From contig JAIROX010000006.1 of assembly GCA_031257295.1 (NCBI GenBank), positions 15,392 through 79,391 on the forward strand: a stretch of DNA of 64,000 nt, given 5' to 3'. This stretch comes from Candidatus Nomurabacteria bacterium (lineage in GTDB: Bacteria > Patescibacteriota > Saccharimonadia > Saccharimonadales > Saccharimonadaceae). This document shows, in pieces, positions 462-64,000 of the stretch (positions are counted from its first letter, which is position 1; each line of letters starts with the position of its first letter). A program made the position numbers and the translations under genes. Below the pieces are notes generated by a model, which worked only from the letters and a program-made list of their open reading frames with translations, made no database searches and was not told the origin of the DNA.

Positions 462-1448
462 ATGGCCAAAAAAGCCGAACTTTATGAAGAGTTGAAGAAG
501 CTCGACAAAAAGACAACTCTAACACCACGTAATACGATAGCTGAGATTGAAGCTGCAATTGCAGCCGTGAAACCAGCTGAGCCGGCTACTGAGGAAACTG
601 TAGCAGCCGAAGATGAAAGCTTCGCTAAAGCTGGCAAACGTAGTAAAAAGGTGATCGAGGAAACTGAAGCTGAGGTTGAGCGCCAAGAGCGTAAAGAAGA
701 AACCAAAGCTGAAACCGTCGAGGTCAAAAAAGGCCCCGCGCCAAAGGCCCGCCCGCTAGCCGAGCGCCGTGGCAAAAAATACCAAGAAGCCGCCAAACTG
801 GTCGAAAAAGACAAGCTCTACACCCTGGCCGAAGCCATGGAGCTGGCCACCAAAACCAGCCCCGTTGAGTTCGACGCTACAGTAGAGATTCACGCTCGTT
901 TGGGCGTAGACCCTCGCCAGGCCGACCAAAACATCCGCACCACCGTTAGCTTACCAAACGGCAATGGCAAAACCGTGCGCGTAGCCGTGTTCGCCCCTGA
1001 GGCTGAAGCCAAGGTGGCCAAAGACGCTGGCGCCGACATTGCTGGCGACGAAGAGTTCTTGGCGCAGCTTAACAAGGGCGTGATTGATTTTGATGTATTA
1101 ATCGCTACACCAGCCTACATGCCAAAACTCGGCAAGTTCGCGCGTGCCCTGGGGCCAAAGGGCCTCATGCCCAACCCCAAAGCCGGAACTGTTACGGCCG
1201 ATATCAAGGGCGCCGTTACTGCCGCTAAAGCCGGCAAGGTAGAATATCGTGTCGATAAGCAAGCCATCGTGCACATTGGCGTAGGCAAGGTAAGCTTTGG
1301 CACTGCCAAGCTAACCGAGAACGCCACGACCTTTTTTGACAGCCTAAAGGCCCAAAAGCCAGCCAGCCTTAAGGGCACTTACGTTAAGTCGCTAACTATT
1401 AGCACTAGCCAAGGCCCAGCCATTAAGCTTGAAAATGTCATAAACTAA
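462..1448 (+). CDS. rplA: 50S ribosomal protein L1 with ~100-aa N-terminal Lys/Glu/Ala-rich extension
   Basis: The L1 core is recognisable from about residue 100 ([13 protein letters not shown]..., [62 protein letters not shown]). AAGGAG SD at 449-454, 7 nt before the ATG at 462. Confidence 0.93.
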
Positions 1449-1465
1449 GCAAAACAAAGCATGCG

Positions 1466-1498
1466 AAAAGTAGCCCTTGCAAAGGGCTACTTTTTTTT
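1466..1498 (+). terminator. Rho-independent terminator after rplA
   Basis: 9-bp stem GTAGCCCTT (1470-1478) / AAGGGCTAC (1482-1490) with a 3-nt loop, followed by T8 (1491-1498). Confidence 0.85.
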
Positions 1499-1519
1499 GC
1501 AAAACGTCCGAAAAAGCAT

Positions 1520-1550
1520 TTGCGTTATACCCTCGGGGGGGGGGTATAAT
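1520..1550 (+). promoter_or_regulatory. Sigma70-type promoter whose spacer contains a G10 homopolymer
   Basis: TTGCGT (1520-1525), then a 19-nt spacer whose last 10 nt are G (1535-1544), then TATAAT (1545-1550). It lies 33 nt upstream of the ATG at 1584. Confidence 0.6.
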
Positions 1551-1583
1551 AACCACATAAAAGTAAGATAGGTGTGTATAAGC

Positions 1584-4500
1584 ATGAAATATTACAAAAT
1601 ACTAACAGGAATCGTACTGGCCTTAGTTATTACTAGTGCAGCGGCAACTTTGTTTATTAACAAACAAAGCGCTCAAGCGGCGGTGAGCTTGACGGCGAGC
1701 AACGAAGCGGAGCTAAAGGCGGCTTTCGCGAACGCCGACACGAATATTGATATTACGATCACGGCGGATTTTGAGCTCTCGACAGCGACGACGGAGGGGA
1801 ATCGCACCGTCAAAAACGGCAAAAACATCACGATTCATTCCGACGGCACGCTGCGGACGATCAAGCGCAGCGCCAGCTACGCTGGCCGGATGATTTTGGT
1901 CCAAAACGGCACGTTGACGTTGAAAGATATCACGATTGATGGCAACAAAGCCGGCACGAGCGGCCTAGCGGACGTCAATACGATGATTTTGGTGGGCAAG
2001 AGCGGTAGCATCGCCGACAAAGGCACGCTGAATATCGAACCTGGCGCCACGCTGCAAAATAACACCGCCACCGCCGGCGATTCATCCAAATCGGCCGGAG
2101 CGGTGGTGGTGCGCGAAGCCAGCACGGTTAATATGTCTGGCGGGCTGATCACCGGCAACACCGGCGCGGACAGAGACACCGGCGGGGCGTTCCTGTTTAG
2201 TGATGGCGATCCAGGGATGTCAACGCCCGGTATGGAGATGACATTTAATATGACCGGCGGCGAGATCAGCGGCAACACGATACGAACCAAAGGCGGTGGC
2301 GGAGTGTATTTCCAAGATAAAGGTAGCGCCAATGGCAGCAATATTACCATCACTGGCAGCGCTAAAATCATCAACAACATTGCCACAAACAGCGGCATAA
2401 GCAACGGCGCTGGCGGCGTGGGCGGCGGCCTGTTTTTTAGTGGCAACAACAAAATGAACATCGAAATCGGCGGTAGCGCCGAAATCAGCGGCAACACTGC
2501 CGGTAGTAACGGCGGCGGCCTAGCCATCAACTCGCAAAGCAACAACGGCATCAACCTGACCGTCAAAGACAACGCCAAATTCACTGGCAACACATCAAAC
2601 GACGGCAAAGGCGGCGGCATTTATGCCGAAAATGTTGACGTGCGGATCCAGGACAATGTGGAAATCACCGACAACACCTCAACTGGCGGCGGCGGAATTA
2701 ACTTGTCGGGCAGCCAGCGCGGCTTTGTCGAAATCGAAGGCCCGGTCAAAATTAACGGCAACAAAGTCAATATCGAAAACCCCGGCAGCAACAACTACGG
2801 TGGCGGCGGTGTCAAACTGAGCGGCAGTAACCAACACATATCCATCGAAAACGGCGCGCAGATCAACAACAACGACGTCTACGCCGACAACGATTGGTCG
2901 GGCAAAGGCGGCGGCGTCTATGTCAGCAGCTGTAACGACATGTATATGTACGATAGCCAGGTTAATGGCAATATTACAGGCAATAATAGCACTAACTATT
3001 GGTATCACGGCGCCAACGGTGGTGGTATTTACTTCTATGGCGATTATTGCAACAGCAGTTCAACGCCAAATGATGCGCGGACATTGGAAATTCACAACAG
3101 TCAAATCAACAACAACACTTCCGGCGGCCAGGGCGGCGGCATCTACACCCGCGTGGCGAACCTGACTTTTGACAATTCGCAAATGAACGGCAACAAAGCT
3201 CGCGACAACGGCGGTGGGATTGAACTACACAACTGGGCTTGGGGCAGCAGCTACAATATGCCATCGGTCAATTTCACGGGCGATTTCCAGATTAACAACA
3301 ACATCGCCGACCTTGACGAAGACGGCGTGGGTGACGGCGGCGGGATTTTTGTGAACGGTTGGAGCGGCAGCTCTAATTTCGCCATCAACCTATCTAGCGG
3401 CCAGATCAACGGCAACAAAGCGGTCGGCGGCGGCGGGATCCATTTTGTGGTTAGTGGCCAGAATAATCATATTTCTACGCTGACGCTGGGCGGCAATGTC
3501 CAGGTGAACAACAACACGGCTTATACACCGGAAGGTATGACGAATTGGAGCGACGCCCAGGGTGGCGCGATCGAGCTGAGCTCTAATAGCGGCTGGTCGC
3601 TGCATATTACCGACAATGCCCAGCTGACCGGCAACACGGCTGGTTGGAACGGCGGCGCGATACATATTGGTGGCCTTTATAACTCGTCGCTGCTGATTGA
3701 CGGCAACCCCAATATTTCCGGCAACAAGACGCTGGGGACGGGCTGTGGTTCGAGCGGTTATGGTTGTTATGGCACCACAGGCGGCGGCGCGATTTTTATT
3801 GGCGGCATGGGCGGGACGGCCAGTGCTGATATTGGCGGCAATGTCAAGATTGATAATAATCAGGCGGTCAATGGGTTTGGCGGCGCGATACGGGTTTTGA
3901 ATTCGCCGGATGGGCTATATATTAACGATAATGCCGAGATTTGTGGTAACTCGGCGGCCTATGGCGGGGCAATTTCGGAGCATTCTGGGTCGGTGGTGTA
4001 TATTTCTGGCGATGTGAAACTTTGCGACAATGTGGCGGACGTTAATGGTGGCGCGATTAACTTGAACTTTGATAGCAATTCGAGTGTATATATGCAAGAC
4101 CATGTTGAAATTGTGGATAATACAGCCGGCGCGGATGGCGGCGGGATTTGGACGGAATATCCGGGGCTGCGCGGGGCGTATATTTCTGGGCCTGGGCAAG
4201 ACCACACGGTGGTGGATGTGGTGGATAATAAGTTGACGAATGTTTATGTGGAGAGCGGCGTGAAGTTTTGGGATAACACGGCACAGGCGGGGTATATCAT
4301 GACTGACTCGGCGGATATCGCAACGCACGGCGCGCAGATTGGCTTGGTGCAGTATTCTTGGGATTTCCCGTATGCGTATAATAATTATGATATTTCGTAC
4401 TTGAGCAGCGATATTAAGCATGTGGCGCGGGTGAAGTTTGATGTGAATGGCGCGTCGTCGCCGACGCCAGCCACGCAATACTATTGGCGGGAAAATCGGT

Positions 4501-4829
4501 CGCTGGCAGTCGAGCCGTCTGTTCCTGTGCGGGCCGGGTATAAGTTCCTCGGCTGGCAGGGCGCGGTAACTACTTGCAATGGCTGGAATGCGGTTTTGGA
4601 CGAAGGCACAGCTTGTACTACCACTGTAGAAATGTGGGATTTTACCTCCGCGCGGGCGTATGCTGATGTTAAATTGACGGCGTTGTGGGAGGAAATCACG
4701 CCTGACGCGCCAAATACTGGGCTAGAGCAGCAAGCCGCAAACGCTTCTGCTAGCACGCCAGCAGCCGTCGGATTACTATTTGCACTTATACTAATTAGGC
4801 GGCATCTACTTAGTAAAAGACGCGCTTAA
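1584..4829 (+). CDS. giant secreted beta-helix repeat surface protein (Pmp-like Gly-rich repeats, Listeria-Bacteroides repeat, sortase-like PNTG sorting signal)
   Basis: N-terminal signal or anchor MKYYKILTGIVLALVITSAAATLFINKQSAQA. More than 20 degenerate repeats of the type N-x-[AT]-x(3-6)-GGG-[IVA], as in polymorphic-membrane-protein or parallel beta-helix adhesins. The C-terminus carries VKFDVNG...AGYKFLGWQG...VKLTALWEE, then PNTG (4710-4721), a hydrophobic helix and an RRHLLSKRRA tail. The ORF track starts at GTG 1572; ATG 1584 gives the canonical signal-peptide start. Confidence 0.85.
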   Translation: MKYYKILTGIVLALVITSAAATLFINKQSAQAAVSLTASNEAELKAAFANADTNIDITITADFELSTATTEGNRTVKNGKNITIHSDGTLRTIKRSASYAGRMILVQNGTLTLKDITIDGNKAGTSGLADVNTMILVGKSGSIADKGTLNIEPGATLQNNTATAGDSSKSAGAVVVREASTVNMSGGLITGNTGADRDTGGAFLFSDGDPGMSTPGMEMTFNMTGGEISGNTIRTKGGGGVYFQDKGSANGSNITITGSAKIINNIATNSGISNGAGGVGGGLFFSGNNKMNIEIGGSAEISGNTAGSNGGGLAINSQSNNGINLTVKDNAKFTGNTSNDGKGGGIYAENVDVRIQDNVEITDNTSTGGGGINLSGSQRGFVEIEGPVKINGNKVNIENPGSNNYGGGGVKLSGSNQHISIENGAQINNNDVYADNDWSGKGGGVYVSSCNDMYMYDSQVNGNITGNNSTNYWYHGANGGGIYFYGDYCNSSSTPNDARTLEIHNSQINNNTSGGQGGGIYTRVANLTFDNSQMNGNKARDNGGGIELHNWAWGSSYNMPSVNFTGDFQINNNIADLDEDGVGDGGGIFVNGWSGSSNFAINLSSGQINGNKAVGGGGIHFVVSGQNNHISTLTLGGNVQVNNNTAYTPEGMTNWSDAQGGAIELSSNSGWSLHITDNAQLTGNTAGWNGGAIHIGGLYNSSLLIDGNPNISGNKTLGTGCGSSGYGCYGTTGGGAIFIGGMGGTASADIGGNVKIDNNQAVNGFGGAIRVLNSPDGLYINDNAEICGNSAAYGGAISEHSGSVVYISGDVKLCDNVADVNGGAINLNFDSNSSVYMQDHVEIVDNTAGADGGGIWTEYPGLRGAYISGPGQDHTVVDVVDNKLTNVYVESGVKFWDNTAQAGYIMTDSADIATHGAQIGLVQYSWDFPYAYNNYDISYLSSDIKHVARVKFDVNGASSPTPATQYYWRENRSLAVEPSVPVRAGYKFLGWQGAVTTCNGWNAVLDEGTACTTTVEMWDFTSARAYADVKLTALWEEITPDAPNTGLEQQAANASASTPAAVGLLFALILIRRHLLSKRRA

Positions 4830-4852
4830 TCAACTTGTGCTAGAATGTAAAT

Positions 4853-5254
4853 ATGATTAGACACACTATTCTTAGAGCGCGGCGAGCACGCAAGATTGAT
4901 GCTGAATATAAAGTGTTTAGACATAAGCATCGCAACTGCACGTTTTGCACAATCAGCACTGGCGACGACAACGAGATCGTAAGCGAAACTAAGCATTTTT
5001 ATATCATTAAAAATCGTTTCCCGTACGAGGTCCTGGACGGTAGCAAAGTAACCGATCACCTGTTAGTTGTGCCCAAAGACCACTTTTTAGAGCTGCGAGA
5101 CATGACACCCAGCGAGCGCAAAACACTAGTAGAAGTTTTAGCTAAATATGAAAAAAAAGGTTATTCATTCTTTGGCCGGTCGCAAGCTGATACTGGCAGG
5201 TCTATGATACATCAGCATACACATCTGATAAAAACTGAAGACAAGAGTAAGTAA
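4853..5254 (+). CDS. HIT (histidine triad) family protein
   Basis: C-terminal histidine triad HQHTHLI; 133 aa. TGcTAGAAT extended -10 at 4838-4846 lies 6 nt upstream of the ATG with no SD, so the mRNA is probably leaderless. Confidence 0.8.
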   Translation: MIRHTILRARRARKIDAEYKVFRHKHRNCTFCTISTGDDNEIVSETKHFYIIKNRFPYEVLDGSKVTDHLLVVPKDHFLELRDMTPSERKTLVEVLAKYEKKGYSFFGRSQADTGRSMIHQHTHLIKTEDKSK

Positions 5255-42811: not shown

Positions 42812-44542
42812 CTAGTCCTCAGTTAGCTCCATGTAAGCCACCTTACCAACCTTAGTCTTGGGCAAAGTTTTGCGAAACTCGATCGAGCGCGGCCACTTAT
42901 ACTTGGCTAGGTTTTGCCGACAATGTTCCATAATCTCTTCTTTAATTTTGTCGCTTGGCTTAGTGCGCCCCTTCAGCACCACAAAAGCCTTAGCCACCTG
43001 TCCGCGATATTTATCGTCAACGCCAACCACAGTAGACAGCAGCACTGAGGGCACTTTGGCTATAACATCTTCAACTTCATTTGGATAAATATTGTAGCCG
43101 CTAGAAATAATCATACGCTTCAAGCGTTGCGCAAAAAACACGTAGCCGTCTTTGTCCATATAGCCGATATCACCAGTATGTAGCCAAATTCGACCATCGG
43201 GGTGCACCTGTAGAGCTTCGTTAGTCTCAACCTCATTATTCACATAACCCTTCATAACACTCGGCGCCGAGATCACAATTTCGCCAATCTCACCAGTTTT
43301 ACGCTCAATATAGGTATCCGGCTCAACAATTTTAAAGAACGCATCCGGCACGGGCAGGCCAATTGAACCATCACGGTTCGATTCAGCCAGGTTCACACAG
43401 GTGACCGACAGGCATTCAGTCAGCCCATAACCCTGCAAAATAAACGCCTCCGAACCGTTCTTGGCCAGCAGGTTATTAACCTCTTTCATAAGCGTCGGCG
43501 CCATACTGTCACCGCCCGAAATAGTAACTTTCAAGAACGACAAGTCTAGCTTACGAATCTTTTTGTCCTTAATCATCGCTTCGAACAAAGTCGGCACGCC
43601 AACCACCAGATTTGGCTTAGTATTAGACAGAATACTATGAAATCGCTTGGCGTCAAACTTGGGGAGCATAATCGTACCACCCCCCCCACAAAAGATTGTA
43701 TGAATACCAACTCCTAGCCCAAAACCATGGAAAATCGGCATGATACCAAGCAGATTATAGCCTGGGCGCACTACTTCCGGAAAAGCTTCACGGCACTGCA
43801 CGGCCGTAGCGTTAAAAGCGTAGTTGCTAAGCGCAATACCTTTGCTTTTGCCAGTTGTGCCACCACTATACATAATCGCCGCCACGTCACTCGCGGTCAT
43901 TTTTTCGTAAGCACTGCCAACCACATATTGCCCGCGGCTCAGCAGCTCGGCCCAGTTCATCGTGTGTTTTTCTTTGGTCAAAATCTGCATCAGGTTTTTC
44001 TGGACCTCTTTAAGGTTGAAGAAATTATTAAAAAACCTGTAGCCCATCTTCGATAGCATCGGCAACGAGTCGGCAGGGGAGAGGATGATAGCACGCTCAA
44101 CTGCGGTGTCTTTTAGAATCGGCTTAACGTTTGGCCAGGCAACGTCGATGACCACCAAGATGCGGCTACCCACTAGGTTCAAGCATTCTTTAATTTCGTT
44201 GGGTGCGCTAAGCGGGTGAAAAATATTAGCTACCGCGCCAATTTTGTTAATGGCATAGATAGCCGTGATAGCCTCTGGTATGTTAGCTGAACAGATTGAA
44301 ATAGCATCGCCCTTCTTGACGCCCAAGCTAATAAAACCATGCGCCGCGCGGTCGACCTCTGCCATAAAAGTTGCATAATTTACTTTGTTACCAAAGTAGT
44401 TGTAAATCATGGCGTCGGGATACTTTTCGGCAGTTTTCAGCACTTCGTCGTACATCGAGCCCTTGGGGTACTTCAATGTCTTTTTACGCTTCTTACCGTA
44501 CTGTTTTAGCCACGGAGCGGCCACTTTTTTTGCACTCATCAC
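42812..44542 (-). CDS. long-chain fatty acid--CoA ligase (AMP-binding superfamily)
   Basis: AMP-binding motif MYSGGTTGKSKG, plus GYGLTE and TGDIGYMDKDGY. The C-terminal lysine region is present. A G8 run in the sense strand (43680-43687) encodes CGGGG. Confidence 0.9.
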   Translation of the reverse strand: MMSAKKVAAPWLKQYGKKRKKTLKYPKGSMYDEVLKTAEKYPDAMIYNYFGNKVNYATFMAEVDRAAHGFISLGVKKGDAISICSANIPEAITAIYAINKIGAVANIFHPLSAPNEIKECLNLVGSRILVVIDVAWPNVKPILKDTAVERAIILSPADSLPMLSKMGYRFFNNFFNLKEVQKNLMQILTKEKHTMNWAELLSRGQYVVGSAYEKMTASDVAAIMYSGGTTGKSKGIALSNYAFNATAVQCREAFPEVVRPGYNLLGIMPIFHGFGLGVGIHTIFCGGGGTIMLPKFDAKRFHSILSNTKPNLVVGVPTLFEAMIKDKKIRKLDLSFLKVTISGGDSMAPTLMKEVNNLLAKNGSEAFILQGYGLTECLSVTCVNLAESNRDGSIGLPVPDAFFKIVEPDTYIERKTGEIGEIVISAPSVMKGYVNNEVETNEALQVHPDGRIWLHTGDIGYMDKDGYVFFAQRLKRMIISSGYNIYPNEVEDVIAKVPSVLLSTVVGVDDKYRGQVAKAFVVLKGRTKPSDKIKEEIMEHCRQNLAKYKWPRSIEFRKTLPKTKVGKVAYMELTED

Positions 44543-58346: not shown

Positions 58347-59318
58347 ATGACCATCTGGGAAGAATTAACCAGCAAAAAGCCGTTTTTTGCCTTGGCACCA
58401 ATGGAAGACGTAACCGACACGGCGTTTCGCCAGGTGATTTTACGCGCCGCCCGGCCAGATGTATTTTTCACCGAATTTATGAATGTAAATGGCTTTTGCC
58501 ACCCTGCCGGCCGCACTAATGTAGCCCGGCGCTTAAAATACCAACCATCCGAGCAACCAATCATAGCCCAAGTCTGGGGCAGCGACCCGGAAAAATTCAC
58601 CGAAACCGCCACAGAGCTCGCAAAAATGGGCTTCGCCGGCATCGATATCAACATGGGTTGCCCCGACAAAGCTGTAGTTCGTGCCGGCGGTGGCTCAGCG
58701 CTTATCAAAAACCCGGCTCTAGCCGCCGATATAATCGCCGCTATTAAAGCCAGCTGTAGCCAACCCATATCAGTTAAAACCCGCCTAGGCTACAGCAGCA
58801 TAGACGAATGGCAAGCTTGGCCGAGCCACCTGCTGCAGCAAGACTTGGCCTGCCTCACCGTCCACCTGCGTACTAAAAAAGAGATGAGCAAAGTACCAGC
58901 CCACCACGAGCTTATCCCCGAGATTATAAAACTGCGCGACGAGCTAGCACCTGAGACTAAGCTGGTGATAAACGGCGACATTGCCGACCGCGCAGCCGGC
59001 AACGAACTGGCGCACAAGCACCCCGGCATCGACGGCATCATGATCGGCCGTGGCGTGTTCGCCAATCCATTCTGCTTTGAGCAAACCCCACAGCATCACA
59101 GCAGAGAAGAATTAATTGACCTACTGGTCTATCATCTGGACAAGTTTGACGAGGAGAAGTGTCGTGCGGCATCGCCAAAATTCGACCCGCTCAAACGTTT
59201 TTTCAAGATCTACATCAACAATTTCCCAGGCGCCAGCGACCTACGTGCCAAACTAATGCAAGCCAAAAACACCACAGAAGTGCGTGATATACTAGACACA
59301 TGGATAAACCAAAAGTAA
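58347..59318 (+). CDS. tRNA-dihydrouridine synthase
   Basis: LAPMEDVTDTAFR, GIDINMGCP and the catalytic-Cys region, plus VHLRT and GRG. TATAAT (58334-58339) lies 7 nt upstream of the ATG. Confidence 0.9.
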   Translation: MTIWEELTSKKPFFALAPMEDVTDTAFRQVILRAARPDVFFTEFMNVNGFCHPAGRTNVARRLKYQPSEQPIIAQVWGSDPEKFTETATELAKMGFAGIDINMGCPDKAVVRAGGGSALIKNPALAADIIAAIKASCSQPISVKTRLGYSSIDEWQAWPSHLLQQDLACLTVHLRTKKEMSKVPAHHELIPEIIKLRDELAPETKLVINGDIADRAAGNELAHKHPGIDGIMIGRGVFANPFCFEQTPQHHSREELIDLLVYHLDKFDEEKCRAASPKFDPLKRFFKIYINNFPGASDLRAKLMQAKNTTEVRDILDTWINQK

Positions 59319-59560
59319 TCGTTTACGGCACCGACTGGTGTAGTTATTGCCACAGCTTGATGGACTGGCTCGACCAACTCGGCGTGGCTTATGAACATAT
59401 CGACGTGGAGGCTGACGCCGAGGCTAAGGCTGAAATGCTAGCCAAAAACGGCGGCGAATTCTTAGTGCCCGTCACCGTGATCGGCAGTGACACGGTAGCC
59501 GGTTTTGACCGGCCAGCTGTTAAAAAAGCTCTGGACAAGCATGGCATCAAGCACGCCTAA
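59300..59560 (+). CDS. glutaredoxin/NrdH-like small redoxin
   Basis: 86 aa with VIVYGTDWCSYCHSL (CxxC) and a thioredoxin-fold pattern ending in VPVTVIG. Confidence 0.85.
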   Translation: MDKPKVIVYGTDWCSYCHSLMDWLDQLGVAYEHIDVEADAEAKAEMLAKNGGEFLVPVTVIGSDTVAGFDRPAVKKALDKHGIKHA

Positions 59561-60395
59561 ACTAACCCGCCGGTTATATAACCAAAACGAGATTTCGATC
59601 TGTTATTTCACCACAAAAGTGTACAAAAATCGGCCAAGCCTGGTAATGGTGCACGGCTTTCGCGGCGACCACCGCGGCATGCTTAAGATAGCCGCCGAAC
59701 TGGGTGACAGCTATAACTTATTCATCCCAGACTTACCGGGTTTTGGTGCCAGCCAACCATTCACCAGCCATCGCCACGACGTGCAAGCTTACGCTAACTT
59801 TTTACACGACTTTATCAAAAAGCTAGAACTCAAAAAGCCCAACATTCTAGCGCACTCATTCGGCACCACTATCGCCAGTGCTTTTGCCACCGAACATCCC
59901 GAAGCCATCAATAAACTGGTGCTACTTAGCCCAATCGCCGCCAACCCAGTGCCCAAAGCCTTGAACTTTTTGACCCAGCCCGCCATGAGCCTGCTACACG
60001 CCCTGCCCGAAAAGCTCGGCCGCGCCCTTACCGCCACCAACCTAGTTACCGACATCATGAGCCTGAGCACCACCAAAACTAAAGACAAGCAGCTACGTCG
60101 CTGGATCAAAGTCGAGCACCGTCGCTATTTCAACAGCTTCGCCACGCACCGTTCAATGATGGAAGCCATGCAGGCCAGCAGCTCCCACCACGTGGCTATG
60201 TATGCTAAGCAGGTCACCACCCCAACACTTATCATAGCGGGAGATAAAGACGGCGTCGGCAAATTCAAACACCAAAAAAACCTGGCCAAGCTATCCACTA
60301 GCGCCCAACTAAAGGTCATCAGCGGAGTAGGGCACCTAACGCACTACGAAACACCAAAAGAAGTCGCTGCAGCGACCAAAGAATTCCTAGATTAG
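59541..60395 (+). CDS. alpha/beta hydrolase
   Basis: HGFRGD oxyanion region, nucleophile elbow AHSFGT and a C-terminal GVGH. ATG 59541 is preferred over the track's TTG at 59505; the start is uncertain. Confidence 0.8.
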   Translation: MASSTPKLTRRLYNQNEISICYFTTKVYKNRPSLVMVHGFRGDHRGMLKIAAELGDSYNLFIPDLPGFGASQPFTSHRHDVQAYANFLHDFIKKLELKKPNILAHSFGTTIASAFATEHPEAINKLVLLSPIAANPVPKALNFLTQPAMSLLHALPEKLGRALTATNLVTDIMSLSTTKTKDKQLRRWIKVEHRRYFNSFATHRSMMEAMQASSSHHVAMYAKQVTTPTLIIAGDKDGVGKFKHQKNLAKLSTSAQLKVISGVGHLTHYETPKEVAAATKEFLD

Positions 60396-61657
60396 TAGCG
60401 CGGCTTATAGTTCTTGATAGCTTTTTTGTAGATCTCTTCAAACCTCTTCAGCGTATAGTCTATGTCGTGCGTTTTGGCGATTTTTAGGCTTTCAGCTGCA
60501 AACTTATCACGCAGCTTGCCGTCAATTAAGATCTTTTCTAAGCCCACTGCAACTTGGTCGACATTGTCTTTTTCGCACAGGAATCCATTGCGACCATCTT
60601 GGCAAAGCTCTTTAACCGCTCCAGCATCCACCGCCACCACTGGCTGGCCGCTAGCCATAGCCTCAAGCGTAGCGATGCTCTGCAGCTCAACAGGGGACGG
60701 CATGCAATAAACCTGGCCAATGCGCAGCAGCTCAAGCTTATCTTTGTCCGACACACGGCCGGTTAGCGTAACATGTTTTGCTACGCCTAACTCTTCGGCC
60801 AGCTCCTGCAAGTTCGCTTCATCCGTGCCAGCGCCAACAATCAACAGGTGAGCGCCTGTGCCTCTTTGAATCCGCGCAAAAGCCTCCACTAGCACTGAAA
60901 TATGCTTTTCAGCATCAACTCGGCCCAAGTAGGTGACAATCGGTTGGTCTGCCGACAAGCCAAACTTTTTGTACACACTAGCCGGCACCTTACCAGGTGA
61001 ATAGCGCGACAAGTCAATACCATTGCTAACAGCTTCAACTGGCATGGGCAGATACTTTAGATCCTCTTTAGTGAAAAACATGTCAATAGCCACCTGAGTA
61101 GGCATAGTTACATAGTCGGCCTTGTCGACCACGCGCGAAAACCAGCGAATCGCTCGGCTGATCGGCCTGCTGAGCGGCGCGAACATCTTCAGGTTATCCA
61201 CCAAGTTTTCTGGCAACACGTGGTTGGTTTCAACAAACGGGATACCCGTGCGATTAGCGTAGCGTAAAGCTTCTTGACCGATCATGATTGGGTTATGGTT
61301 GTGAATCACATCAGGCTCGAAATCGTTCAACGCCTGGCGAATTTCACGCCGCGGCGTTAGACAAATCCTAAAGCCATTCTTGGGGTAAATTGGCACATTT
61401 GGCATGTTCACACCCGCCAGTTCCCGTGGCTCGCGGATATCGTCAATTTGATTGTGGTAAAACGGAAACACCACCGACTTAAGCCGCACAATGTTGGTTT
61501 TACCGTCTTTTTCAATATAATGCACGCCAGTTTGACTCGGTGCCAGCACCAGCACCTTATGGCCACGCTCGGCTAGGCCCAGCGCAAGTTCATGGCTCGC
61601 CGTAGATACGCCATTAACTGTTGGCCAGTAGAGGTCAGATGAAATAGCTATTTTCAT
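60392..61657 (-). CDS. GT4-family (GT-B) glycosyltransferase
   Basis: N-terminal MKIAISSDLYWPTVNGVS. The C-terminal half has the E-x7-E-like region SPVELQSIATLEAMASGQPVVAV. TGtTATAAT (61672-61664, minus strand) lies 6 nt upstream of the ATG. Confidence 0.88.
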   Translation of the reverse strand: MKIAISSDLYWPTVNGVSTASHELALGLAERGHKVLVLAPSQTGVHYIEKDGKTNIVRLKSVVFPFYHNQIDDIREPRELAGVNMPNVPIYPKNGFRICLTPRREIRQALNDFEPDVIHNHNPIMIGQEALRYANRTGIPFVETNHVLPENLVDNLKMFAPLSRPISRAIRWFSRVVDKADYVTMPTQVAIDMFFTKEDLKYLPMPVEAVSNGIDLSRYSPGKVPASVYKKFGLSADQPIVTYLGRVDAEKHISVLVEAFARIQRGTGAHLLIVGAGTDEANLQELAEELGVAKHVTLTGRVSDKDKLELLRIGQVYCMPSPVELQSIATLEAMASGQPVVAVDAGAVKELCQDGRNGFLCEKDNVDQVAVGLEKILIDGKLRDKFAAESLKIAKTHDIDYTLKRFEEIYKKAIKNYKPRY

Positions 61658-61756
61658 GTTATCATTATAACATGACGAGCTCGAGTGAAATGAGAACTGG
61701 TTCTCATTTCTGAGGCGAGGAAGTGTTACATTAAAGCGTAGTTTTATTATACTATA

Positions 61757-61789
61757 ATGAGGTTTTTCTTCGACGCCAGATTTATCTAA
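61757..61789 (+). pseudogene. 10-codon relic of a glycosyltransferase 5' end (MRFFFDARFI-stop)
   Basis: 25 of 30 nt are identical to the first 30 nt of the GT4 gene at 62557 (MRLFFDARFI). This includes an exact 15-mer, GACGCCAGATTTATC, at 61772-61786 and 62572-62586. The relic ends in TAA at 61787-61789. Confidence 0.6.
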
Positions 61790-61801
61790 ATACCAATTTT
61801 C

Positions 61802-62449
61802 TTAAAGCTGATTTACACTAAATACGCCACTTGTGTCCACGTCCACACTCTTAGGATCGCCTTTATAGTGAATACTGCCCGCTCCTGAGGCGTCACCTGA
61901 CAAAGCTTCTGTCACCCAGATTTTCGCGTTTGCCGAACCAGAAAAGTTCACGATGACATTCTTGACCTGATATTTTTGGGCGTCAATGCTACACGAGCCC
62001 GAGGCCGCCAGCTTCAGCTCCAACGCGCTGCCCTCGTCAAACGTCACATTTGCAGCACCACTTATGTCAAGAGAAGATATTTCGGGCATGGTAATGTCGA
62101 CTACTAGCTTTGTCGACATGATAGGTTTGAAATTTGTGTCGATAAAACTAATGCTCAGCACACTGTCGGACACCTCGACTTTGATGTGCTTTTGGAGGTT
62201 GCCGTCGGTTGTCACCGAGACGCCATTGCTTTTCCCAAAATGGATATTCGCCGTATAGTCCCCACTCAGCTCAATCGCGCTAAATACCTCAACCTTTCGC
62301 TCTTGAGTCACCACCTTGCCGTCACCGCGGATACTGCCGAAGGCGAAGAAATAGGCAGCTCCTAGCGCAAGGCACAGGGCAACAATGCCACCAATAATCC
62401 CCGCTTTACTTAATTTTCCTAATTTGCGTTTTTGTACTTTTTCATTCAT
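61802..62449 (-). CDS. membrane-anchored GIN-domain (DUF2807) putative adhesin
   Basis: N-terminal TM anchor, then repetitive beta-strand units (ISGAANVTF, ASGSCSID, FSGSANAKIW, ASGAGSIHYKGDP) typical of head-domain (GIN) beta-helix proteins. Confidence 0.8.
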   Translation of the reverse strand: MNEKVQKRKLGKLSKAGIIGGIVALCLALGAAYFFAFGSIRGDGKVVTQERKVEVFSAIELSGDYTANIHFGKSNGVSVTTDGNLQKHIKVEVSDSVLSISFIDTNFKPIMSTKLVVDITMPEISSLDISGAANVTFDEGSALELKLAASGSCSIDAQKYQVKNVIVNFSGSANAKIWVTEALSGDASGAGSIHYKGDPKSVDVDTSGVFSVNQL

Positions 62450-62497
62450 CGTGACATGACCCCTCTGCTTTACTTTTTGTTATTAACGTACACAGGT

Positions 62498-62527
62498 ATT
62501 TTACCCCCCCCCGGTTGGAGAATGCAA
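62498..62527 (-). promoter_or_regulatory. Sigma70-type promoter whose spacer contains a G9 homopolymer (minus strand)
   Basis: On the minus strand: TTGCAT (62527-62522), an 18-nt spacer whose last 9 nt are G (C9 on the plus strand, 62504-62512), then TAAAAT (62503-62498). This is the same layout as the promoter at 1520-1550. Confidence 0.6.
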
Positions 62528-62556
62528 GCTACCTTATTATCTGATATACTGGCACC

Positions 62557-63642
62557 ATGCGATTGTTTTTTGACGCCAGATTTATCCGCACCGACCGACA
62601 TGACGGTATTAGCCGGTACTCTTTTGAGCTGGCGCAGCGGGTGAGCGACCATCATGATGATGTGACTTATATTATCCATGGTGAAAAGCAGCGTAACTTT
62701 TTACCCAGTGGCGCTAAAACTATCATTCTTAATAACCCCGAATCAGTGCGCGAAGCTTGGTCGGGACGGGCACTGGCCAAGCATCAGCCAGATGTGGTGT
62801 TTTCGCCCATGCAAACTTTGCGAGGCCACAGGTCGTACAAGCTAGTTCTAACCCTGCACGACACCATTTACTATCGCCACAAAACCCCACCGGCCAACCA
62901 TCCAGCCTGGGTGCGCCTGGGGTGGCGGTTATTTCACGCCACGCCACTACCACAACGAATGGCACTAAATTCTGCCGACCACGTAGTGACAGTTAGCCAT
63001 AAGAGTAAGCATGAGATTGAAGATATGCGGCTAACCAAGCGGCCGGTTAGTGTAGCCTACAATGCGCCGGGCGACCTGTCACGGTACCTCAACGACCCCG
63101 TAGCCACCACTAGCGTGGACAACCTAGTTTACATGGGTTCGTTCGTGCCCTATAAAAACGTTGAGACCTTAGTGCGTGCAATGAGGTACTTGCCCGGCAA
63201 AACTTTGCACCTACTTAGCAAAATCACCCCTGAGCAGAGGAAAAACATTGAACAACTTTTTGATACAACCTATGGAAAAGTCATATTTCATGGCGGTGTC
63301 AGCGACCAAAAATATGCCGAGCTTTTGGCCAACAACGCCGCGCTAGTTTCGGCCAGTAAAGATGAGGGCTTCGGCCTACCACTAGTGGAAGCTATGAGCC
63401 TGGGCGTGCCAGTAGTAGCTAGTGACGAGCCGGCTCACCGCGAAGTAGCAGGTGATGCCGCCTTGTATTTTAAAACCACCAGCGCCCGCGACCTAGCCGA
63501 TAAAGTCAAGCAGATCGAGGACGATAAACTACGCGCCGAACTGATCAAAAAAGGCAAAAAACAAGCCGCTAAGTTTAACTGGGATGACAGCGCCAAAACC
63601 ATAGTTAAGATAGCCAAGGAGTTGCATCGTGGCAAAGAATAA
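62557..63642 (+). CDS. GT4-family glycosyltransferase
   Basis: N-terminal MRLFFDARFIRTDRHDGISRYS and C-terminal EGFGLPLVEAMSLGVPVVAS. TGaTATACT (62542-62550) lies 6 nt upstream of the ATG. Confidence 0.9.
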   Translation: MRLFFDARFIRTDRHDGISRYSFELAQRVSDHHDDVTYIIHGEKQRNFLPSGAKTIILNNPESVREAWSGRALAKHQPDVVFSPMQTLRGHRSYKLVLTLHDTIYYRHKTPPANHPAWVRLGWRLFHATPLPQRMALNSADHVVTVSHKSKHEIEDMRLTKRPVSVAYNAPGDLSRYLNDPVATTSVDNLVYMGSFVPYKNVETLVRAMRYLPGKTLHLLSKITPEQRKNIEQLFDTTYGKVIFHGGVSDQKYAELLANNAALVSASKDEGFGLPLVEAMSLGVPVVASDEPAHREVAGDAALYFKTTSARDLADKVKQIEDDKLRAELIKKGKKQAAKFNWDDSAKTIVKIAKELHRGKE

Positions 63643-64000
63643 ACCCAAGCCTAAAAACCGCGCGGTGATTGTAAACCGCCGGGCTCGCTACGATTACAAC
63701 CTGGGCGAAGAACTAACCGTAGGTATGAGCCTGAATGGCAAGCAGGTGCGCGCCGCCCGTGATGGCCTGGTGCAGCTAAAGGGTAGTTACGTTACAGTGC
63801 GAGCAGGTGAGCTGTGGCTGAGTAATTCTAGCTGGACACTTAAGCTGAACCAACGCGGCGGGGAAGAAAAAGCTGTTGATACCGAACCAGTTAAGCTGCT
63901 GGCTACCCGCAAGCAGATCATGGGGCTGATGCAAGCTAGGCAAGACGGTAACACCATTGCCGCATTGCGCTTGCATGTGGCCGGGCAGTTTATTAAGCTC
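63629..64000 (+). CDS. smpB: SsrA-binding protein SmpB, N-terminal ~124 codons (runs off window end)
   Basis: AAGGAG (63616-63621) lies 7 nt before GTG 63629. The product is VAKNKPKPKNRAVIVNRRARYDYNLGEELTVGMSLNGKQVRAARDG...VKLLATRKQI. It overlaps the GT4 stop and is not in the ORF track because there is no stop in the window. Confidence 0.85.
   Translation, partial: MAKNKPKPKNRAVIVNRRARYDYNLGEELTVGMSLNGKQVRAARDGLVQLKGSYVTVRAGELWLSNSSWTLKLNQRGGEEKAVDTEPVKLLATRKQIMGLMQARQDGNTIAALRLHVAGQFIKL

Follow-up and report, generated by a model that had tools for sequence, protein, structure and literature searches.

Which function could a run of ten G have that makes up half of the spacer of a promoter in front of a surface protein gene? 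In the window, by which we mean the whole stretch of 64,000 nt that was analysed here, such a run precedes the gene of a 1081-aa exported protein, and a sequence-only reading had seen in it a candidate switch for phase variation. Taking all results together, it appears rather probable that this tract and a second one found in the window are hypermutable homopolymers within sigma70-type spacers, which would make both promoters transcriptional contingency loci of the porA/tp0126 type. The elements of the first locus are the following.

1470-1498, plus strand: intrinsic terminator of rplA, with a hairpin at 1470-1490 (stem GTAGCCCTT/AAGGGCTAC, loop GCA) and T8 at 1491-1498
1520-1525, plus strand: -35 hexamer TTGCGT, the best -35 candidate, 19 nt from the -10 hexamer
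1526-1534, plus strand: TATACCCTC, the part of the spacer between TTGCGT and G10
1535-1544, plus strand: G10 homopolymer, candidate slippage tract, forming the -10-proximal half of the 19-nt spacer 1526-1544
1545-1550, plus strand: -10 hexamer TATAAT, directly adjoining G10
1570-1574, plus strand: Shine-Dalgarno-like AGGTG, 9 nt before the ATG at 1584
1584-4829, plus strand: gene of the 1081-aa exported protein, identical to NCBI MDR0591511.1, locus tag LBG75_03110

On direct reading the layout proposed before, TTGCGT, 9 nt, G10 and TATAAT with a total spacer of 19 nt, turned out to be exact to the base. The gene upstream is rplA, as identified by its Pfam Ribosomal_L1 match, and its predicted terminator is what separates the 1081-aa gene from ribosomal-protein transcription. 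Within the 135-nt intergenic region TTGCGT-19-TATAAT is the sole sigma70-like site, located 3' of this terminator. No TTG-containing hexamer is found 17 or 18 nt from the -10 element of locus 1; thus, the assembled G10 state is two off the optimum. Counted from a presumed transcription start near 1557, the leader would have a length of about 27 nt.

The second locus lies near the other end of the window and is read from the opposite strand.

62522-62527, minus strand: -35 hexamer TTGCAT
between TTGCAT and G9, minus strand: TCTCCAACC, 9 nt
62504-62512, minus strand: G9 homopolymer (C9 on the plus strand), forming the -10-proximal half of the 18-nt spacer 62504-62521
62498-62503, minus strand: -10 hexamer TAAAAT, adjoining G9
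61802-62449, minus strand: gene of a 215-aa protein, NCBI MDR0591569.1 (Pfam PF10988, E = 2.7e-28)

A recurrence of the layout at 62498-62527 had been claimed, and we find the same arrangement in the same register there, but with G9 instead of G10 and TAAAAT instead of TATAAT. The promoter, for which a transcription start near 62491 is predicted, is situated 48 nt 5' of the ATG at 62449, and in the 107-nt intergenic region TTGCAT-18-TAAAAT is the only sigma70-like promoter for the DUF2807 gene, its spacer of 18 nt being one off the 17-nt optimum. Hence both spacers hold a homopolymer of at least about 8 nt between the -35 and -10 hexamers, G10 at locus 1 and G9 at locus 2. The pattern TTGCRT-N9-G9 matches twice in the window and 0.00 times in 100 dinucleotide-preserving shuffles, which bears out the earlier judgement that a recurrence by chance is unlikely. 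The two promoters have the hexamers and the tract in common, the flanking sequence they do not share. Since the layout is alike and the sequence is not, they are not copies of one element, and an origin of both from a mobile cassette was ruled out, as nothing is alike beyond hexamers and tract. That the poly-G promoters drive the genes behind them is predicted from the lack of any other promoter-like site, from the Shine-Dalgarno-like motif downstream and, at locus 1, from the terminator. The promoter of locus 2 stands back-to-back with an extended -10 promoter of a divergent GT4 gene (TGATATACT, 62543-62551; region 62450-62556). The C9 lies upstream of the core of this GT4 promoter, so that a change in tract length should leave its spacing unaltered.

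How unusual are such tracts in this genome? The window, with a G+C content of 48.5%, contains ten G/C runs of 5 nt; lengths 6 and 7 are missing, and lengths 8, 9 and 10 are represented once each. The previous count of just three runs of 8 or more in 64 kb is therefore right, and these three are also the only ones of 6 or more. A first-order Markov model of the window yields approximately 12 G/C runs of at least 6 and 0.58 of at least 8, with 0.012 expected for G of 10 or more and 0.073 for C of 9 or more. With three runs of at least 6 against about 12 expected, the genome avoids G/C runs in general, and the three long ones stand out; measured by the homopolymer distribution of the window itself, the promoter tracts are outliers. 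Intergenic DNA accounts for just 6.3% of the window; nevertheless, two of the three long runs fall into it and adjoin a -10 hexamer. A/T runs reach a maximum length of 8, and all of these are coding except the T8 of the rplA terminator. No other simple-sequence repeats of note exist in the window. The third long G/C run lies within a gene:

43680-43687, minus strand: G8 in frame, codons 286-288 (FCGGGGTIM), in an AMP-binding/acyl-CoA-ligase-like gene at 42812-44542

By computation, shortening to G7 leads to a stop at aa 323 and lengthening to G9 to a stop at aa 297. Outside both promoters, this coding G8 is a possible translational contingency tract.

The products of the two genes were characterized next to their promoters. 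For the 1081-aa protein, whose NCBI entry MDR0591511.1 is labelled 'Candidatus Nomurabacteria bacterium', we find a signal peptide (residues 1-33), a parallel beta-helix at about 34-857 with repeated GGGI/GGAI motifs, and a Flg_new-like C-terminal domain as a weak match. Its C-terminus reads APNTG, followed by a hydrophobic helix (1064-1079) and RRHLLSKRRA, that is, a sortase-type sorting signal. The motif xP(N/D)TG is present in both homologues: in one (P0002) a hydrophobic stretch and then a basic tail come after it, the record of the other (P0003) ends just past the motif. Relatives carry a sortase gene beside rplK. AlphaFold2, run with an 11-sequence alignment, gave a model (pLDDT 79, pTM 0.77) with three-stranded beta-helix turns over about 820 residues and a transmembrane helix at the end. 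A sequence search of the PDB with the 1081-aa protein yielded no match. Foldseek matches to the model were weak (best E = 0.007), and every one of them was a right-handed beta-helix, among them PL6 lyases, antigen 43 (Ag43), pertactin, SRRP and tailspikes; homologues of the protein carry PF02415/PF13229. As all Foldseek matches are right-handed beta-helices, the designation as a surface beta-helix protein is supported. The former description as a 'beta-helix adhesin-like' protein thus holds for the surface beta-helix, on the grounds of signal peptide, sorting signal, AlphaFold2 model and Foldseek result; the adhesin part is unproven, as lyases and tailspikes are among the matches, and judged from the model an adhesin role is plausible.

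The second tract had likewise been placed upstream of another surface protein, which agrees with our analysis: the 215-aa protein has a membrane anchor at its N-terminus, combined with a DUF2807 'adhesin head GIN' domain, and its gene lies between two GT4 glycosyltransferase genes. So at both loci the product is of the exported or surface-anchored kind, judged by the sorting signal of the 1081-aa protein and by the membrane anchor of the 215-aa protein.

The best sigma70-like sites in the other intergenic regions of the window show canonical hexamers and spacers of 17-18 nt (TTGACA-17-TACAAT, TTGACA-18-TATAAT, TTGACT-17-TATAAT and TTGATC-17-TATAAT). From what is known of slipped-strand mispairing and of sigma70 spacing, a tract should gain or lose one G at high frequency during replication, and each step would shift the distance between -35 and -10 by 1 bp and rotate the two elements relative to each other by about 34 degrees. 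Locus 1 would then be strongest with G8 (17 nt) and intermediate with G9; the assembled G10 would be weak, and G11 or more as well as G6 or less would be off. For the assembled spacer of locus 2 (18 nt), moderate activity is to be expected. The states captured in the assembly are thus probably a weak one in the case of locus 1 (19 nt) and an intermediate one in that of locus 2 (18 nt). The tract length of the ON state is what we infer here; spacers of the wider class described below peak at 18-19 nt, and the geometry of G-tract DNA is atypical. Independent switching of the two promoters, possibly also of the coding G8, would generate several surface phenotypes within a clonal population. Such variety could be useful to a small-genome bacterium which is presumed to depend on host cells and is exposed to phages and changing hosts.

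Switches of this kind are well known. Repeats in promoter spacers control surface lipoprotein and fimbrial genes in Mycoplasma hyorhinis (vlp, poly-A) and Haemophilus influenzae (hifA/hifB, TA repeat). M. hyorhinis is likewise a small-genome, host-dependent organism; it belongs to another taxon, and its repeat is poly-A, not poly-G. Closest to the window loci are two poly-G systems. In Neisseria meningitidis the tract lies between the -35 and -10 elements of porA, and its length grades expression from high to none around a spacing of 17 nt (PMC7864442). The same position is taken by the poly-G of Treponema pallidum tp0126, encoding an OmpW homologue, for which transcription is optimal at 17 nt (PMC7864442). 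The layout in the window is that of porA and tp0126, and on this account both tracts are read as slippage-driven switches of spacer length. With porA they share a poly-G in the sigma70 spacer of a surface-protein gene. They differ in that porA codes for an outer-membrane porin of a proteobacterial pathogen and that its length variation and the effect on expression have been demonstrated, whereas the window belongs to uncultured Patescibacteria, with a beta-helix product anchored in sortase fashion, and is known from sequence alone. The parallel to tp0126 includes the small size of the genome and its low number of long poly-G tracts, the majority of which are variable in T. pallidum: there, 76% of the poly-G tracts of 8 or more differ in length (PMC7864442). 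This spirochaete gene belongs to an unrelated family, however, and its variation was verified by fragment-length analysis and GFP reporters.

A second group, tprE/G/J/L of T. pallidum and opc of N. meningitidis, resembles the window loci in that a G/C homopolymer in the promoter of a surface gene controls the amount of transcription. The tract of tprL overlaps the -10 region, and the poly-C of opc covers the -35 region (PMC7864442), so that hexamer spacing is not the operative variable in these cases; the tracts in the window lie wholly inside the spacer. Of the two examples that had been offered for a homopolymer in the spacer, opc consequently has to be dropped, whereas porA was rightly chosen and tp0126 is a further true spacer case (PMC7864442). 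In Campylobacter and Helicobacter, a limited set of long G/C runs, intergenic as well as intragenic, controls surface structures (PMC8355987). Their intragenic class resembles the coding G8 of the window. Most of these tracts are intragenic frameshift switches, whereas the promoter pair of the window would act, if at all, on transcription.

Direct comparison with copies from other strains was limited by the isolated position of this genome. The 1081-aa and the DUF2807 protein form singleton clusters among approximately 15 billion sequences. One Logan assembly (run SRR14710896, L001) is 100% identical to window positions 58802-64000 and has the same G9. As both may go back to one set of reads, it is not an independent measurement of this G9. 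It is the only second copy, and length variation was seen at neither locus; a G count taken from a short-read assembly can be off by one. A look-up of exact proteins (rplA, the 1081-aa protein, P0001, HIT, the 290-aa protein, P0056 and GT4) returned no further strain-level copies; it was the DUF2807 protein that led to L001. A degenerate pattern covering both promoters found no second copy of either of them in the metagenome collection; its sole match (L123) was an unrelated chance match. A MAG with the same NCBI label (L029) was ruled out as the same genome, as it has no DNA similarity.

The nearest homologues of the 1081-aa protein are 49-51% identical (L002, L003). Their genes have ordinary promoters without poly-G, TTGTCA-17-TATAAT in the case of L002; within this gene family, the tract is hence not conserved. 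For the DUF2807 protein the nearest homologue is only 32-33% identical, hence there is no orthologous promoter to compare. The closest relatives judged by ribosomal protein L1 (L124 and L125, 83-85% identity) have the gene order rplA, (DCD), HIT, rplJ, rplL, and the large gene together with its promoter is missing at that site. In 21 kb of these two relatives there are no G/C runs of 6 or more. The rplA-HIT interval (window 1449-4852) holds a dCTP deaminase gene in L124 (6997-7821) and nothing in L125 (3512-3568). These differing contents show that the site inside the ribosomal-protein cluster is variable. The comparison suggests that the 1081-aa gene, along with its poly-G promoter, entered the interval between rplA and HIT as an insertion specific to this lineage; its GC3 of 0.634 is the highest in the window. 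As a side observation, L1 itself (window 462-1448) possesses a Lys/Glu-rich N-terminal extension of about 125 residues which is common to the relatives (L1 of 328-345 aa), while the NCBI annotation gives a shorter protein of 216 aa (P0056).

We extended the search to the species-representative genomes of GTDB, using the pattern TTGCNT-N8-10-G>=8-N0-4-TAWAAT. At least 119 loci with poly-G in the spacer match, from many unrelated assemblies including isolate genomes. Among the 80 loci listed with titles at least 19 are labelled as CPR, under the names Saccharibacteria, Nomura-, Taylor-, Buchanan-, Moran-, Uhr- and Roizmanbacteria, Parcubacteria and Paceibacterota; many uncultured Clostridia among the matches listed have the same layout. 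Although 75% of the sequence of the loci is taken up by ORFs of at least 100 aa, 98 of the 119 matches listed are located outside any such ORF (82% intergenic), and several of the remaining overlaps are merely upstream extensions of the downstream ORF. The tract adjoins the -10 element in 79 of the 119, and the commonest assembled spacers among the matches listed are 18-19 nt long, not 17. A strongly hydrophobic N-terminus is present in the products of 36 of 68 downstream genes compared to 130 of 606 other ORFs of the same loci (odds ratio 4.1, p = 1.3e-7).

Homologous promoters from different species could be compared in seven pairs, mostly from non-CPR taxa. Five of them have indels in the tract with conserved flanks: G9 versus G11 in L071/L096, G14 versus G17 in L007/L121, G9 versus G8 in L087/L088, G9 versus G10 in L030/L060 and a net difference of 1 nt in L009/L091. 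One pair (L077/L094) has G10 in both members. The pair L040/L068 was rejected as a length polymorphism, because the alignment shows a T-to-G substitution which leaves the spacing unchanged. These comparisons support the behaviour expected for the class, not that of the window loci themselves. In approximately 165 kb comprising the CPR-labelled loci and L002, L003, L124 and L125, the promoter tracts are the only G/C runs of 7 or more. Genes found behind CPR tracts code, for instance, for a 1009-aa Ig-like protein with a C-terminal anchor (L029, G10), a dockerin protein (L005), a PG-binding/Ig protein (L024), an Ig-like protein (L034), an anchored secreted protein (L076) and a prepilin (L036). 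Clearly exported products stand behind only about 7 of the 19 CPR examples, and about half precede small non-exported proteins.

Could the G-run belong to a static promoter, in which its length is fixed and does not switch at a rate that matters biologically, and in which it acts as a structural element, as a partial extended -10 or as a regulator site, at a constant and probably low strength? Such a promoter would look as both loci do, with no heterogeneity and the same G9 in the Logan assembly; the spacers of the class peak at 18-19 nt among the matches listed, L077/L094 keep their G10 and L040/L068 their overall spacing. Moreover, poly(dG).poly(dC) has an unusual helical geometry, which might make 18-19 nt the optimal distance. 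However, we know of no organism tested in which runs of 9-10 G did not prove prone to slippage, and this intrinsic property, like the 76% of variable tracts in T. pallidum (PMC7864442), is difficult to reconcile with a tract that stays constant. The lack of any other run of 6-7 G/C in the window, the tract indels in five of seven homologous pairs elsewhere and the association with exported proteins, a signature of contingency loci, point in the same direction, and we regard a static promoter as rather unlikely. It is still far less probable that the tracts were introduced during sequencing or assembly, for example from the poly-G read tails of two-colour chemistry, which occur as artefacts in NextSeq and NovaSeq data. 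The tracts are short (9-10 nt), lie with unique flanks inside a contig of at least 64 kb, take the same register between -35 and -10, and appear as poly-G at one locus and as poly-C at the other on the contig strand. As the Logan assembly has the same G9 and the layout is found in many unrelated assemblies, isolate genomes among them, an artefact is very improbable.

Chance, or a role other than in promoter spacing such as a G-quadruplex, a hairpin operator, reiterative transcription or a known RNA element, is to be judged very unlikely as well. Two matches against 0.00 expected speak against chance. The flanks of the tract at locus 1 can pair (TTATACCCTC with GGGGGTATAA), but the hairpin is not significant (z = -1.17) and it is absent at locus 2; Rfam families were detected at neither of the two poly-G sites, and the reading as hairpin, operator or RNA element was rejected on these grounds. 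For an intramolecular quadruplex a single G-run is insufficient, with no other run of 6 or more nearby, and being upstream of the -10 element, the tract is not transcribed from this promoter. The indirect lines of evidence all agree with a slippage-driven change of spacer length, which would best explain why two promoters of surface-protein genes carry the tract in the same place.

CPR or Patescibacteria constitute a large share of bacterial diversity, most of it uncultured, and their cultivated members live attached to host cells. To our knowledge, little has been found out about the control of their attachment proteins, given how few regulators they possess. The shared architecture in at least 19 CPR-labelled genomes, a -35 element, about 8-10 nt and a poly-G adjoining the -10 element, leads us to propose tentatively, and with some doubt, that poly-G spacer switches are a lineage-wide strategy of these bacteria with reduced genomes for the stochastic control of surface proteins and pilins. 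No report on phase variation in Saccharibacteria, Patescibacteria or CPR was found in the literature searched; if our interpretation is correct, this would be the first such system described for CPR. A mutational switch would provide these bacteria with a cheap, regulator-free way to diversify their surface, here by a beta-helix protein of the sortase type and a DUF2807 protein, and the genes listed above suggest the same device in front of pilins and Ig-like proteins in other CPR lineages. It would also be a warning that assemblies report just one state of such promoters. Since the mechanism itself is textbook knowledge, what makes the finding valuable is the lineage and how widely the architecture is distributed, and not a new principle; that it extends to CPR and uncultured Clostridia is the by-product of most interest in this study.

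Some further observations were made along with the promoter comparison. In Parcubacteria and in other genomes, some poly-G spacer promoters are immediately followed by type IV pilin-like genes, with a PF07963 N_methyl match in L036 (833-1363) and the motif FTLIELLVV in L036, L114, L043, L051 and L097. The small non-secreted proteins behind CPR-like poly-G promoters have similar N-termini within each of two pairs, ...SDAELIKFGAEY and ...SDAKLIKAGSKY in one of them (L012, L059) and ...EWGPELGRMSW and ...EMGPDLGEMQW in the other (L032, L102), and may represent a recurrent family under the same control. Directly 5' of the tract, CCCTC occurs in three CPR poly-G promoters: at 1530-1534 of the window, in a goat-gut Saccharibacteria MAG (L067, 5609-5613) and in a Moranbacteria MAG (L076, 5452-5456), which could be due to chance or reflect a preferred flank.

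Many genes of the window have a -10 box, often of the extended TGn-10 form, whose end is separated from the start codon by only 4-8 nt. This close spacing is seen at 4838-4853, 25664, 26367, 45843 (minus strand), 58347, 61657 (minus strand) and 62546-62557; for the HIT gene, TGcTAGAAT is located at 4838-4846 and the ATG at 4853. It suggests that leaderless mRNAs are widespread in this genome. The poly-G promoters instead have predicted leaders of about 27 nt at locus 1 and about 42 nt at locus 2, with Shine-Dalgarno-like motifs present.
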